Below are positions 10,447-49,108 of a stretch of DNA of 64,000 bases, piece after piece. This DNA comes from Octopus vulgaris. Taxonomy: Eukaryota. Each line of letters starts with the position of its first letter. The stretch's first letter is position 1. The translations under genes were made by a program, and so were the position numbers. The notes beneath the pieces are model-generated. The model did not search any database. It saw only the letters and a list, made by a program, of their open reading frames with translations, and had not been told where the DNA came from. Where the stretch lies: NCBI GenBank assembly GCA_951406725.2, contig OX597823.1, positions 84,134,001-84,198,000 on the forward strand. The letters are read 5' to 3'.

Positions 10447-10875
10447 TGTGGAGTGTACCTGTGGAAAGGGTAGTCCCAGGAAGACCAGGATTGAAGTGGT
10501 AAGAAAAGATCTTCAGACGTTAGGCCTCACTGAGGAAATGACAAAGGACTGGAAGATGTAGCAATCTGCTGTACTCAATAAGACACGTCAAGCTAAGAAA
10601 AATCACTGTCTTCCACATATACAGGCATGTCCCCCAGGTACTGCAGGTGCCACTTAAAAAGCACCTGTGCCGGTGCTATGTAAACGCACCTGTGCTGGTG
10701 GAATGTAAAAAGCACCCACCACACTAAGCGTAGTTGGTATTAGGAAGGGCATCCAGCTGTTGAAACCATGCCACAACAGACAATTGGAGTCTGGATAACT
10801 CCCTGCTACCCAGCTCCATGTCAAACCATCCAACCCATGCCAGCATTGAAAGCGGACATTAAATGATGAGGATGA
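10447..10875 (+). mobile_element. RTE LINE 3' fragment with ORF C-terminus
   Basis: GKGSPRKTRIEVVRKDLQTLGLTEEMTKD, like RTE GRP.KTW..VV..DL, followed by the shared tail; links the abundant tail to an RTE ORF. Confidence 0.75.
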
Positions 10876-16749: not shown

Positions 16750-17325
16750 CATCATCATCATCCTTTAATGTCCGTTTTCCATGCTGGCATGGGTTGGACG
16801 GTTCGACAGGGGTTTGGGAAGTCAGGAGGTTGCACCAGACCCCAATCTGATCTGGCAGTGTTTCTACAGCTGGATGCCCTACCCAGCGCCAACTACTCTG
16901 AGAGTATAGTAGGTGCTTTTTACGTTCCACTGGCACAGGGGCCAGAGGGGACTGGCAATGACCATGCTTGGTTGGTGTTTTCTATGTGCTACCAGCATGG
17001 AAGCCAGTCAAAGCGGCACTGGCATCGACCACGTTCGGATGGTGCTTTTTACGTGCTACCAGCACTGGGCTTACAACTACAATTTCCATTTGATTTGATT
17101 TTGATATTGCTGATGTTGATGTACTTGACTCAGTAGGTCTCCTCATGCTTGGCATGTTGCCCTATGATCCAAGGTACTTTTGAGTGGGCTGGTTATGCGA
17201 TACTGGTGTAGGTTACTGCTGTGGACCCACTTTATTTGCCAGGTCTTCTCAGTCACAGCATACCTTCTGAGGCCTCGGTCTTTTGTCATTGCCTCTGTGA
17301 GGCCCAAGGTCATTGCCGAAATTCG
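16750..17325 (-). mobile_element. RTE LINE 3' fragment
   Basis: Minus frame LGLTEAMTKDRGLRRYAVTEKT then the shared tail. Confidence 0.75.
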
Positions 17326-17924: not shown

Positions 17925-18310
17925 TATTTCGGTAATTTCAACCAATGAATGACGTATATTCAGCTGAATAAAATTACAAGAACTTCCGGCAGTGTATATT
18001 TCATTTGTCACTGGTATTTATGACAACCCTAACCCTAAAACCCTAAAACCCTAAACCCCTAACCCTAAAACCCTAACCCCCTAACCCTAACACCCTAACC
18101 CTAAAACCCTAACCCCCTAACCCTAAAACCCTAACCCTAAAACCCAACCCCTTAACCCTAAAATCTTAAAACCAGTACAAATGCACAAGCGATGTCATAA
18201 CTAACAGTGACAAACGAAAAATACACTGCCGATAGTTGTTGTTGACAAACAATGGCAGTAATTTTATTCAGCTGAATACATGTCATTGATTGGTTGAAAT
18301 TACCGAAATA
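17925..18310. mobile_element. Foldback/MITE-like element with degenerate telomeric core
   Basis: 53-bp inverted arms 17925-17977 and 18258-18310, inner inverted arms, (CCCTAA/CCCTAAAA)n at 18025-18163. Confidence 0.7.
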
Positions 18311-21926: not shown

Positions 21927-22835
21927 GTATGTATGAAATTTCCACTGAAGTCAACGTTTTACCATTTCTTTTCTTTCCCTTTAACAATAAAAAACAGTTA
22001 CAAAATTCCTTTTTCAATATTTTCTGTGTATTTTAAGGCTGCGTTTGTTTTATTTTTGCTCCTGAGTTCTGCTTTTTTTTTAATACCATTTGGGTGTTAG
22101 ATTTAATCTAACATTTGGTGTAATATCACCACCTGACCCTTTGAATGTCCACTTTGATGACAGCATTTCGGCCAGGTTCCCAATCTGAGGATACTTTTGT
22201 CATTCCCTTTTACCAGTCTTGGAGATCTCATGAAAAGTTTTTGGCACTGTCTTCCTATCTGAATAAAAAGAAAACAATAAAATCACAAAAATGCTTAGCT
22301 TTTAATTATTCTCATCGTTCGTTTGTTTAACGTCTGCTTTCCATGCTAGCATGGGTTGGACGATTTGACTGAGGTCTGGCTAACCAGATGGCTGCACCAA
22401 GCTCCAATCTGATCTGGTGGAGTTTCTACTGCTGGAAACCCTTCCTAATGCCAACTACTCTGAGAGTGTAGTGGGTGCTTTTACATGCCACCGGCATGAG
22501 GGCCAGTCAGGCGGTACTGGCAATGGCCACGCTCAAATAGTGCTTTTTATGTGCCACCTGCACAGGAGCCAGTCCAGTGGCACTGGCAACAACCTCTCTT
22601 GAATATTTTTTCACATACCACCAACACAAGTGCCAGTAAAACAATTAGCAGTTGGCAGTTACTGATATGATATAAAACTCTACTCCTTCAATGGGTACCC
22701 TCCACAATTAGAGATCAGCACTTCTTCATGCAGCTGTCCTCATCCATATACATCACATGACCACATTTGATGCTTCTTATACCCAGCTTTCCTCTTAAAT
22801 CATTTCCACTCTGCCATGCATGCACACTGACATAA

Positions 22836-44188: not shown

Positions 44189-44274
44189 GTTGGCAAAAAA
44201 TCAGATAAGGTCAATGAAGAACTTCTCAAAGATGATGAAGATGAGAGCATGGGTATATGGGATTCTATATCAAG
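44189..44274 (+). CDS. UGGT1: UGGT exon 27 (linker, GC donor)
   Basis: VGKKSDKVNEELLKDDEDESMGIWDSIS; donor AAG|GCAAGT is the only site giving the phase 2 that exon 28 needs. Confidence 0.88.
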
Positions 44275-45961
44275 GCAAGTATCTATAAATTTAACCTTTT
44301 GGAATTTAAAAATTTAGTTTTTGATGTCCTTCAATTATACATGTCTCCTCTCTTTGAAAGATTTATTTTGTCAAAGCAAGAACAACAGAGATGTATTTGT
44401 CCTTATATAGTCTTGTCTCTCAATATGTTCTTATGTTCAAGAGCAAAGGTGTGTGGCATTATGGTTAGGGTATGCGGCTCTTGATCAAAAGGTTGTGAAT
44501 TCAATACCTGGTCACATGTCTTTTATGTCTTTTGAGTAAGACTATTTATTTCATGTTGCTCCAGTTCACTCGGTTGGCAAAAATGAGTTGTACCTGTTTT
44601 TCAAAGGGCCGGTCTTGTCACACTGGCATCTTGAATCTCCCTGAGAACTATGTTAAGGGTACATGTGTCTGTGGAATGCTCAGCCACTTGTATATTAATT
44701 TCACAAGCAGGCTATTCTGTTGATTGGATCAACCGGAATTCCCATCGTCATAACTGACAGAATACCAGTTGTATTCAAGAGTCAGCATGAATACAAAAAG
44801 TACCGGTGGCACATAAAACACACCATTCAAACGTGATCATTGCCAGCGTCGCTTTACCGGCATATGTGCTGGTGGCACGTGACAAACAACATTCAAGCGT
44901 TGTCATTGCTAGTGCCGCCAGACTGGCTCCCATGCAAGTAGCATGTAAAAATCACCTTTTTGGCATGATTGTTACCAGAACGGCCTGACTGGCCCTTGTG
45001 CCTGTGGCACGTAAGAGCACCCACTTCACTCTTGGAGTAGTTGGCATTAGGAAGGGCATCCAGCTGTAGAAACTTTGCCAGATCAGATTGAGCCTGGTTC
45101 AGTCTGCTGGTTCACCAGTCCTCAGTCAAACCGTCCAACCCATGCCAGCATGGAAAGCGGACGTTAAACGATGATGATGATAGACTGTGGCCATGCTGTG
45201 GCATTATTGTTTTTAAAGCTTTACAGTCAGTCATATTGATCCCCAAACCTTGCTACTTGTTTTATTGTTCTTGAAAGTAACAGAAGGCAGAAGTTAACCT
45301 TGGAGTAAAGGGACATAGCTAATAATGCAATGTACTTTTGTTCAGTTTCATTCTCTCTTGCCAATTCATACAGTATGTCTGTCTGTCTATCATTCATTAT
45401 CCAAATTTCTGCATTTTTCACATTGTGTTAACATCCACTTTTCCATGCTGACATGAGTTGAACGGAATTTGCAGACTTTGATTTTGTACAGCTTGATGCT
45501 CTTCCTCTCACCAACCCTCAACAAATAAGGGGACACTTGTTTGTAACTATCATGCAGTGCCAGATCAAAGGAATACACAGTTGTGCTCTCACAAACACAC
45601 ACACACACACACACATCTTTGATGGGCTTCTTTCAGTTTCCATCTACCAAATCCACTCACAAAGCTTTGGTTGGCCTGAGGCTGTAGAAAAAGACAGTTT
45701 TGTAAGGATCCAGGCTGCAAAACTGATCCTATAATCATCTGGTTGGGAAGTAAACTTCTTAACATCTGTTTTTATATAAATGGGAGTAACTCAATACATA
45801 AAGTAGAGTATATACTTTTTTGATTTTCATGTCATTGCACATAGCAGAGTGCACCAGCCTGAAACTCAAGGTGTCTGAGTCACTGTTGTTTCAGAGATAC
45901 ACTTTAAAACCTGGATGAATAGAACACATGTACAAATTGCTCATATAAATATATACATTTA

Positions 45962-46013
<52 letters not shown>

Positions 46014-46015
<2 letters not shown>

Positions 46016-48349
46016 CATCATCATCATCATCATCATCGTTTAACGTCCGCCTTCCGCGCTAGCACGGGTTGGACGGTTTGACCGGGTCTGGGAAGCCAGG
46101 GGCCGCTCCAGTCTGAATCTGGCAGAGTTTCTACGGCTGGATGCCCTTCCTAACGCCAACCACTCCGTGAGTGGATTGGGTGCTTTTTACGTGCCACCTG
46201 CACAGGGGCCGGAGGGTCCGGCATCGTCACGATCGGTTCGAGCATTTTAACGTGTCAGCGGCACGGGGGCAACGAGGTCCGGGGTACTTTGGGGATCGGG
46301 GTACTTTGGGGATCCAGGGTACTTTGGGGATCCGGGGTACTTAGAATGGGTAGGGGGTATGTGGAATTGCTGCAGAAAGCAGCCCGGGTCTTTGTAGTCA
46401 CAGCATTTATCGTCACTGAGTAACGTAATTAGGTAGAGGAAAGAAATACAGATATTCTAAGAGTTGAGTTGGGGAGGGGGGGTCCAGTTGAGGCGGGTAA
46501 TATAGGGGAGCAACCAGTGGGAAGGTTGGGGTAAGGAGGAACGATGGCAGGAAGGGTTGGTGTAGGTTCCTAAGAAATAAAAACGTAGGATATTACGAGG
46601 CGGGAGGGTACTAAAGGGGATGGTCGGAATGAGGCAGTGTCAGGAGGAAGCGTAAGATCGGTGGGCAGTTGATGAGCTATGGCGCTAGCAGGGCAGTTGA
46701 TGAGCTATGGCGCTAGCAGCTTGTCTTTTCACAGTGAAAGCATATGAGGAGAAGGGGTAGTGGGGGGAGGAGGGAGTAGGGCGTACCCGGTGTAGATGAG
46801 TAAGGCGTATCCGGTGTAGATGGTGAGAACTGGGTATAATGGTATTGGTGGTGGCGGTGAGAACAGTGTTCACCGGTATTGGTGGTGGGGGTGAGAACAA
46901 TGTTCATCGGTATTGGTGGTGGGGGTGGGGGGGCGGGCGCACCACCACTGGCGGAAAGATGGGAAGAGATGGGATTACGGCTTGAGGCAGCCTAATGGTT
47001 AAATTTTGTAGAGAGAGATAGGAAAGATAAATCAAGTTATGGCGAAGGCTTGAAAGTAGTCTAAAAAGGTTAAATTTTCGTAACAGTGTATGAATAAACG
47101 TAGTAACAACAAATAAAAAGAGTAAGATAAATTTTTAAGAACTTGCTGCGGGCATCGACCAGGAGTTGAAATTGAAGAAGAAAGTAAGTTGAATTGGCGG
47201 AAAGATGGGAAGAGATGGGATTACGGCTTGAGGCAGCCTAATGGTTAAATTTTGTAGAGAGAGAGATAGGAAAGATAAATCAAGTTATGGCGAAGGCTTG
47301 AAAGTAGTCTAAAAAGGTTAAATTTTCGTAACAGTGTATGAATAAACGTAGTAACAACAAATAAAAAGAGTAAGATAAATTTTTAAGAACTTGCTGCGGG
47401 CATCGACCAGGAGTTGAAATTGAAGAAGAAAGTAAGTTGAATTGGCGGAAAGATGGGAAGAGATGGGATTACGGCTTGAGGCAGCCTAATGGTTAAATTT
47501 TGTAGAGAGAGAGATAGGAAAGATAAATCAAGTTATGGCGAAGGCTTGAAAGTAGTCTAAAAAGGTTAAATTTTCGTAACAGTGTATGAATAAACGTAGT
47601 AACAACAAATAAAAAGAGTAAGATAAATTTTTAAGAACTTGCTGCGGGCATCAACCAGGAGTTGAAATTGAAGAAGAAAGTAAGTTGAATTGGCGGAAAG
47701 ATGGGAAGAGATGGGATTACGGCTTGAGGCAGCCTAATGGTTAAATTTTGTAGAGAGAGAGATAGGAAAGATAAATCAAGTTATGGCGAAGGCTTGAAAG
47801 TAGTCTAAAAAGGTTAAATTTTCGTAACAGTGTATGAATAAACGTAGTAACAACAAATAAAAGAGTAAGATAAATTTTTAAGAACTTGCTGCGGGCATCG
47901 ACCAGGAGTTGAAATTGAAGAAGAAAGTAAGTTGAATTGGCGGAAAGATGGGAAGAGATGGGATTACGGCTTGAGGCAGCCTAATGGTTAAATTTTGTAG
48001 AGAGAGAGATAGGAAAGATAAATCAAGTTATGGCGAAGGCTTGAAAGTAGTCTAAAAAGGTTAAATTTTCGTAACAGTGTATGAATAAACGTAGTAACAA
48101 CAAATAAAAAGAGTAAGATAAATTTTTAAGAAATTGCTGCGGGCATCGACCAGGAGTTGAAATTGAAGAAGAAAGTAAGTTGAATTGGCGGAAAGATGGG
48201 AAGAGATGGGATTACGGCTTGAGGTAGCCTAATGGTTAAATTTTGTAGAGAGAGAGATAGGAAAGATAAATCAAGTTATGGCGAAGGCTTGAAAGTAGTC
48301 TAAAAAGGTTAAATTTTCGTAACAGTGTATGAATAAACGTAGTAACAAC
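46014..48349 (-). mobile_element. Composite non-autonomous retroelement: monomer array + unique body + RTE 3' end
   Basis: RTE tail 46014-~46410, body 46411-46948, array 46949-48349; (TA)n on both flanks. Confidence 0.6.
46949..48349. repeat. Tandem array, ~5.7 copies of a 246-248 bp unit
   Basis: TGGCGGAAAGATGGG starts at 46949, 47195, 47443, 47691, 47938, 48186; only a few differences between copies. Confidence 0.97.
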
Positions 48350-48359
48350 TACGTTTATT

Positions 48360-48392
<33 letters not shown>

Positions 48393-48393
48393 G

Positions 48394-48427
<34 letters not shown>

Positions 48428-48932
48428 CACACACACACATATACATATATATGTGCAGGCATTGCTGTGTGGTTAAGAGGCTCACATTGCAACCATGTCG
48501 GTTTCAGGTTCAGTCTCACTTCACAGCACCATGGGCAAGTGTCTTCTATTTTAGCTCTGGGCTGACCTATGCCTTGTGTGTGAATTTAGTAGATGGAAAT
48601 TGCAGGGAAACCTGTTTGTATACATACATACATACATATCTATCTATCTATCTACATATGCATGTATGTTTGTATGTGTATACGTGCATCTTGTTTTAAC
48701 ATTGTAAATGAATATCCTTCACTTCCATTATTCTGTGAAAATATTTCTGACCATGGGGAATTACAATATTGCAAGTGAGGGTTGGCAACATGAAATGTAT
48801 CCAGCCATAGAGAATGTGCTCCAACAAATTTCATCTGACTCATGCAGGCATGGATAAGTGGAAGTAAAAACAATGATAATGACATATTATCTCATTCACT
48901 CTCTGTATATATATATATTTACACACACACAC

Positions 48933-48972
<40 letters not shown>

Positions 48973-49009
48973 GAATGTATAATCTTATATCATTGATTTC
49001 TATTTTCAG

Positions 49010-49108
49010 TTCTTTTGGTGGAGGCAAGAAGGAGAAGAAAGAAGATAAAGATTCCACATTAAATATCTTTTCCTTGGCATCAGGTCATCTGTATGAACGT
49101 TTCTTACG
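49010..49108 (+). CDS. UGGT1: UGGT exon 28 (start of GT24 domain)
   Basis: SFGGGKKEKKEDKDSTLNIFSLASGHLYERFLR; phase 2 to 2. Confidence 0.96.

Follow-up and report, generated by a model that had tools for sequence, protein, structure and literature searches.

An ORF-less derivative of an RTE-type LINE with 5' monomer arrays from the Octopus vulgaris genome

The element described here lies on the minus strand of the window, a stretch of 64,000 nucleotides of Octopus vulgaris contig OX597823.1 that was analysed as a whole. Almost certainly it arose by internal deletion from an autonomous RTE-type LINE that has a single ORF and resides in the same genome. In the overall explanation, to which we assign a probability of roughly 0.8, the derivative keeps the 5' monomers, the 5' UTR and the 3' end of its parent without the ORF, was likely copied in trans into (TA)n, and carries monomers that likely serve as a repeated promoter. 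The element belongs to a known kind, the bipartite non-autonomous RTEs, and carries a monomer array in the style of mouse L1, a feature that literature searches did not find described for RTE.

The features of the element and its host intron are as follows, with positions counted from the first letter of the window.

44189..44274, plus strand: UGGT exon 5' of the host intron, with the GC donor at 44275
45943-46015, no strand assigned: (TA)n target tract, 3' side (TRF; target tract taken as 45943..46013)
46014..46037, minus strand: (GAT)8 tail, read from the sequence
46038..46254, minus strand: RTE 3' UTR, by comparison with parent copies
46255..46406, minus strand: final ~50 codons of the parent ORF to the stop, including the 18-bp x3.7 repeat, by comparison with parent copies
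46406..46407, minus strand: deletion junction, where 3151-3153 bp of the parent ORF are gone, by comparison with parent copies
46407..46948, minus strand: C-rich "tether", the unique 5' UTR of the parent LINE, ending 3 nt before the ATG, with 34-, 24- and 28-bp duplications; ~98% identity to parent copies over the compared part
46949..48349, minus strand: array of 5.7 monomers of 247-248 bp, the 5'-most unit partial (TRF)
48350..48359, minus strand: 10 nt at the 5' junction that repeat, inverted, the bases with which the element begins, snap-back-like, within a 12-bp perfect hairpin at 48332-48359
48356-48452, no strand assigned: (TA)n target tract, 5' side (TRF; target tract taken as 48360..48452)
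49010..49108, plus strand: UGGT exon 3' of the host intron

In the 64-kb window, TRF reports the monomer array at 46949-48349 (5.7 copies of 248 bp, 99% matches), an exact 28-bp pair at 46663-46719, a 24-bp pair at 46774-46822, 34-bp units at 46841-46927 and the 18-bp repeat, in 3.7 copies, at 46278-46342. The array, the body duplications, the 18-bp repeat, the (GAT)n and the (TA)n flanks are all located by TRF and by reading where the first-pass annotation had placed them. Its statement that the element has no protein ORF also holds, as no ORF of 100 aa or more is found inside the element. The same annotation took NAVTTKT for the last codons of an RTE ORF, followed by the 18-bp repeat. The ORF end is present, but the N is created by the deletion junction and the parent reads YAVTTKT. 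The repeat is likewise present, but in full-length parents such as L064 it is still within the ORF, the stop of which maps to 46255-46257.

The 5' end of the window copy is at approximately 48359. The 10-nt fold-back at this end is seen at one of 93 junctions examined, that of the window copy itself. Any target-site duplication (TSD) of this copy is masked by the (TA)n tract. With 99% identity to the nearest copy in body and tail, the window copy is very young. Its 3' part is 97.9% identical to L064 over 377 bp, and its monomer is ~95% identical to those of parent copies, compared with ~98% for the tether. Elsewhere in the window, short remnants of the 3' end of a related, older RTE ORF are present at 17239-17307, 22760-22832 and 10469-10549 (77-81%), and a degenerate (AACCCTAA)n telomere-like tract occupies 18025-18173.

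A search of the genome with the monomer gave 193 matches from 39 of 213 candidates, and 33 other loci were fetched from the 150 matches listed. The monomers are followed by the body in 33/33 of these loci and the tail is present in 32/33. Dispersed copies with the parts in the same order, which the first-pass annotation had named as support for its proposal, are thus present outside the window. Two of the fetched loci, L061 and L063, contain a 3.15-kb ORF exactly at the seamless junction of the window copy. The deletion, of 3151-3153 bp, begins 3 nt ahead of the ATG and leaves the last ~50 codons of the ORF in place. The junction 25-mer has 172 exact occurrences genome-wide (reversed control, 0), and the matching uncut junction of one parent sub-lineage has 55 occurrences in the genome. 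There is no microhomology at the deletion ends. Splicing was rejected as the cause of the deletion, as the ends are not GT-AG on either strand. In the subfamily formed by copies L056-L060, ~190 bp of the tether are tandemly duplicated. The first copy of this duplication keeps the parent ATG context and so marks the parent sub-lineage in which the deletion arose.

SVA is a non-coding, trans-mobilised element with an internal, length-variable repeat, and it is built from unrelated sources. The element of the window had been read as a composite of this type. In such an origin, unrelated pieces, a satellite and a C-rich body, would have been fused to an RTE 3' tail. RTE tails are indeed reused in this genome: the last ~190 bp of the RTE 3' UTR have 70-87% identity with ~20 other short repeats in the window. 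However, all 5' parts are found, in order, on autonomous copies, and the junction cuts cleanly through a single LINE. Every part, including the monomers, belongs to one autonomous RTE-type LINE, and a composite origin can for practical purposes be set aside. The likeness to SVA is that both are non-coding with a length-variable repeat and that the present element, too, is very likely mobilised in trans; the difference is that the parts of the present element all come from one LINE.

The parent LINE was sampled by searching with the 5' portion of its ORF, which scored 40 of 1568 candidates; 39 new copies were fetched. L082 and L084 (inverted) and L090 and L099 (which run off the fetched DNA) were excluded from the parent set. 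In 31 of the 39 ORF-selected copies, monomer sequence precedes this same tether; the other 8 are truncated within it. Endonuclease, reverse transcriptase (RT) and C-terminus are in one frame in 23/41 copies (the 39 plus L061 and L063), in 5 of these from the first Met. The Pfam domains of the ORF are RVT_1 and Exo_endo_phos, with a weak PHD finger below the cut-off. In L064, residues 818-861 form a PHD-like finger just past the RT domain, and this finger is common to many unnamed homologues. Among the 120 listed homologues of the parent, which bear no clade names, EN-RT-PHD proteins 600-1100 aa long predominate. The tail of the parent is (GAT)n, a microsatellite 3' tail, which is described as an RTE feature in the accessible text of PMC9115989 and PMC13295347. 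The putative assignment to RTE is anatomical: a single ORF with these domains, and a (GAT)n tail.

Two other identities of the parent were rejected. The L1 clade has ORF1 and ORF2 and an A-rich tail, in contrast to the single ORF and (GAT)n tail seen here. For RTE-2_OV, none of the five published primers matches any of four parent copies within 5 substitutions. When the letters of the supplementary VCF of PMC9115989 were compared with the parent ORF, with respect to kinship with an O. bimaculoides RTE, equal top scores were obtained at unrelated offsets, which is uninformative as to kinship.

Parent copies vary in several respects. The end of the ORF crosses the 18-bp repeat and its length differs between subfamilies. 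The first ~40 codons are found in three different frames, owing to indels in poly-C runs; these differences could be sequencing error or real. Inverted segments are present at the 5' end of L082 and in the 3' end of the ORF of L084. Identity to L063 is 98.7-100% in the ORF (median 99.4, n=39) and 78-98% in the monomers (median 91, n=24).

Marks of retrotransposition were scored on the first 100 of the 172 junction copies. Monomer sequence is present in 71/100 copies, and the remaining 29/100 are 5'-truncated in the tether. The tail was called in 98/100 copies and the 5' ends are variable. In 72/94 copies a (TA)3 motif is found upstream, no more than 20 bp from the 5' end, and in 72/98 downstream, no more than 20 bp from the 3' end, compared with 273/2650 background windows. 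Informative TSDs are found in 12/91 copies, compared with 1-3 in three shuffled pairings, and most TSDs are hidden in TA. The constant order of parts, the variable monomer number and the RTE 3' end that had been noted for this element recur in the 33 fetched loci and the 100 junction copies. With 172 exact junctions, dispersed loci and no ORF, the earlier proposal of a young, dispersed, non-autonomous family stands. Mobilisation in trans by the protein of the parent is very likely, given the shared 3' end and the intact parent copies. Transcripts of the element would be copied by the parent's EN-RT protein, with target-primed reverse transcription from the 3' UTR and (GAT)n at (TA)n.

In a tree of 109 copies, which omits L048 as a duplicate and copies with too little tether, 4/88 branches are starred and the support for the deleted family having a single origin is weak (84/0). 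L042 and L048 (C16:20.65 and 20.38 Mb) are ~97% alike in both flanks and represent one insertion duplicated with its surroundings. At L051 (C7:26.46 Mb), an 850-bp inverted repeat (96%) is centred on the element.

Monomer and body sequence are also found in contigs of four DNA-type runs with four organism labels, where summed contig depth does not give copy number. In the matches listed from these four runs, none bridges the deletion junction. In run X6 (organism C), the summed depth of monomer contigs is some tens of times that of the tether, compared with less than 10 times in X2 and X4; depth is again no copy number, and the contrast is a weak hint of longer or free arrays in organism C.

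The monomer subfamilies span 246-349 bp. The 56 copies with a full unit fall into period classes of 324-340 bp (22 copies), 311-320 bp (18), 245-249 bp (7), 301-309 bp (5) and 267-282 bp (4). The 248-bp unit corresponds to the 333-bp unit of the parent minus 85 bp. It is found in the window and at 11 other loci, all of them deleted copies, and in 0/41 parent copies. Because this unit is found only in the deleted lineage, that lineage would have source copies of its own. The genome contains 1476 exact monomer anchors (~1,500 monomers) and 164 exact array-tether junctions, so that the total is at least 164. When the first 100 listed anchors were matched by eye, 15 of their 16 clusters adjoin a known tether or copy, and the 16th probably does so as well. 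No free monomer satellite is present among these 16 clusters.

Array length ranges from less than 1 to more than 120 units across copies. Extended fetches gave 24, 28, 34 and 40 units in deleted copies and ~40 and 41 units in parent copies; an intact LINE thus carries as many as 41, and L099 has an intact ORF with a Met start. The array of L119 has at least 122 units (39.6 kb) and ends at an assembly gap, with noisy outer units. The array lengths are two-humped: with L040 omitted, the 2-4 kb class contains 2 arrays where 16.5 are expected under an exponential (n=70). Block patterns occur within arrays, such as 317 x8 followed by 333 x3, or an alternation of 334 and 144. The parent copies L078, L081 and L090 contain higher-order arrays that mix full units with 144- or 155-bp sub-units. 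From G000:C1:134551429 onward, ~15 kb upstream of a parent junction at 134566640, there is an array of ~390-bp units, probably another very long array.

The array in the window, or the very long arrays elsewhere, might be assembly artefacts. The near identity of units would fit this, as would the gap and noisy outer units of L119 and a gap in L126. Against it, the window units are not uniform and differ from each other at several sites; dozens of loci have arrays, their periods are specific to the subfamily and their ends are clean and flanked by TA; and a contig under another organism label contains a 246-bp tandem return. We regard an artefact as improbable for these arrays.

Two pairs of related copies bear on how arrays change. 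L040 (G000:C11:54528000-54537900) and L039 (C11:55423000-55432900) are 0.9 Mb apart and have a common 5' junction and 790 bp of common upstream flank. L040 ends at the tail and sits in a TA minisatellite with a duplicated unit. Judged by these sequences, L040 is a 5' transduction or a DNA-level copy of L039. It has 20 units and L039 has 19. A C>T change is present in 17 interior units of L040 and in no other locus tested, while the outer unit and two inner units keep the source base. This pattern, a variant filling the interior between two unchanged ends, speaks for exchange at the locus rather than growth at the 5' end. In the second pair, L119 (C2:127.45-127.49 Mb) and L120 (C2:127.86 Mb) are 99.6-99.8% alike over at least 20 kb of 3' flank and have at least 122 and 21 units, respectively. 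This pair may be a segmental or a false duplication. Both the length of L119 and the pair itself may be assembly artefacts, because of the gap at the end and the noisy outer units.

A general homogenisation test gave p=0.62 (n=33) and has no power, since the copies are nearly identical (median nearest-neighbour distance 0). Locus-private fixed variants are found in only 3/48 arrays. The case for renewal at the locus is made by the two pairs, one of them doubtful, and the block structure, because the general test is without power and private variants are few. With this basis, renewal of arrays at the inserted locus is probable. Outer units would be lost at each copying, and the shortened arrays would regrow at the locus among interior units through unequal exchange, conversion or slippage, in some cases becoming as large as satellites.

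A promoter role of the monomers is rather probable, by analogy, with Pol II transcription predicted to start from them. The CpG o/e values are 1.35 and 1.18, compared with 0.40 in the window. The 333-bp unit contains 5 CCAT-core motifs where 0.7 are expected, the motif having been chosen after the sequence was seen; we take these cores to be YY1-like. The YY1 label for the CCAT core is from PMC6454616. The 5' ends of copies fall unevenly around the unit, with an excess in one half (n=91; Rayleigh p=0.003). Candidate positions for a start inside the unit are ~297-331 and ~60-110. In a test for a sharp peak, the best 30-bp window gave p=0.08, and the parent copies alone also gave p=0.08. L040 and six arrays that run off the fetched DNA or into N were omitted from the 5'-end test. 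No TATA box or TCAKTY initiator was found in the monomer. The segment absent from the 248-bp unit contains 17/91 of the 5' ends, and the 248-bp form spread nonetheless.

The same ancestry is compatible with monomers that are a passenger tandem repeat without a promoter role. Transcripts would then come from the tether or from host read-through, and the arrays would grow by tandem instability. The 790 bp of L039 upstream flank in L040 imply a template that began upstream of the entire array. The weak clustering of 5' ends, the lack of TATA or Inr in the unit, its AT-rich composition (36% GC) and the continued spread of the 248-bp lineage after the 85-bp loss point the same way. However, the monomers have the same place and orientation in all subfamilies, parent and derivative, no free arrays occur in the 16 clusters checked, and CpG o/e is high. 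The monomers also change much faster than the ORF (the median identities to L063 given above, 91% and 99.4%), as do L1 5' UTRs (PMC5381506). A passenger role is accordingly a serious but unlikely alternative to the promoter role preferred here.

Tandem units of 250-350 bp are also a feature of retrozymes, in which self-cleaving tandem RNAs are copied by rolling circle, and HDV-like ribozymes are frequent at RTE 5' ends (PMC5786205). A ribozyme search, suggested by the first-pass annotation, gave nothing to support this. For the element, Rfam returned no ribozyme family up to E=10; the matches of the scan are all far below gathering scores and nearly all on TA tracts. The units contain no hammerhead core. 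A home-made descriptor of HDV-like ribozymes, which had no positive control, gave no match. The sense strand is 9-10% G and its fold is weak (-20.7 kcal/mol for 248 nt). A ribozyme array is very improbable.

The host gene is UGGT, on the plus strand (PF06427 and PF18404 exons). The host intron, 44275-49009, opens AG|GCAAGT and ends AG, with the element inside it in the opposite orientation. A monomer promoter may, as the first-pass annotation proposed, fire antisense to UGGT. The reading frame agrees with the earlier description of this as a GC-AG intron. The GC donor at 44275 appears to be required, because the GC join keeps the frame and a GT four bases on would shift it into a stop. Downstream of this donor, the UGGT sense strand contains 12 AATAAA motifs within the element (window 46576-48337, plus strand) and 0 elsewhere in the intron.

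The class of bipartite non-autonomous RTEs has been described and is recurrent (Kojima 2018, PMC5786205). RTE-N2_Lch, RTESINE1/2, WALLSI3 and Bov-A (PMC5786205) resemble the present element in that they consist of 5' and 3' LINE parts after internal deletion, have no ORF and depend on a parent. The bipartite RTEs for which that paper's accessible text gives a length are a few hundred bp long, in contrast to the 0-40 kb monomer array and own monomer subfamilies found here. The words "tandem" and "monomer" do not occur in the accessible text of PMC5786205, and no use of "monomer" was found in that of PMC9115989 and PMC13282606. RTE-2_OV of Octopus vulgaris (Petrosino 2022, PMC9115989) is also a young, single-ORF RTE of ~1100 aa; its 3' UTR is mostly microsatellite, and monomers are not reported in the accessible text. 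R2 SIDEs, RIME, NARTc and Persaeus (PMC3414825, PMC6740152, PMC5786205) are likewise short, internally deleted non-LTR derivatives. They belong to other clades, and R2 uses a 5' ribozyme and co-transcription, whereas no ribozyme was found in the element. No description of monomer arrays in RTE or octopus LINEs was found in literature whose coverage left most subscription papers and Repbase outside.

The analogy with mouse L1 monomers, drawn from the window alone, fits the anatomy of tandem 5' monomers and a tether, followed by the ORF in the parent. The A module of Dictyostelium TRE5-A is also tandem. It has promoter activity (PMC5911963). Arrays of 5' monomers with a tether are present in mouse and rat L1 (Zhou and Smith 2019, PMC6454616; Boissinot and Sookdeo 2016, PMC5381506). 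In the accessible text of PMC6454616, the monomer structure is described as special to L1Md and one array of 50 units is cited. Mouse L1Md and the present family have in common tandem 5' units a few hundred bp long, an outermost unit that is incomplete, a unique tether preceding the ORF, a fast-changing 5' region, CpG-rich units and occasional very long arrays. The family differs from L1Md in its single-ORF, RTE-like LINE, (GAT)n tail, TA targets, AT-rich units and putative promoter. It also has no sharp truncation site, reaches at least 122 units compared with the 50 cited, and bears the array on a non-coding derivative too.

Tentatively, and at slightly less than even odds, an RTE lineage may have independently evolved the mouse-L1 design of a tandem monomer promoter, renewed by exchange of interior units where the copy is inserted. 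Arrays rebuilt in this way would reach tens of kilobases, a LINE promoter would thereby seed satellites, and a protein-less derivative would evolve promoter units of its own, separately from its parent. Annotation would probably mask arrays of this kind as tandem repeats and sever them from their LINE. The family also shows a way in which the 5' end of a LINE can lead to arrays the size of satellites; in plants, satellites arise from retrotransposon tandem repeats (PMC7004042). How L1 monomers are kept up despite truncation-prone copying is an unresolved question in PMC6454616, with extension at second-strand priming set against unequal crossing-over. A very young family outside L1, with ~1,500 monomers on at least 164 array-tether junctions, bears on this question. 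If the proposed renewal is true, the pairs of related copies in this genome would allow the renewal of monomer arrays to be measured directly.
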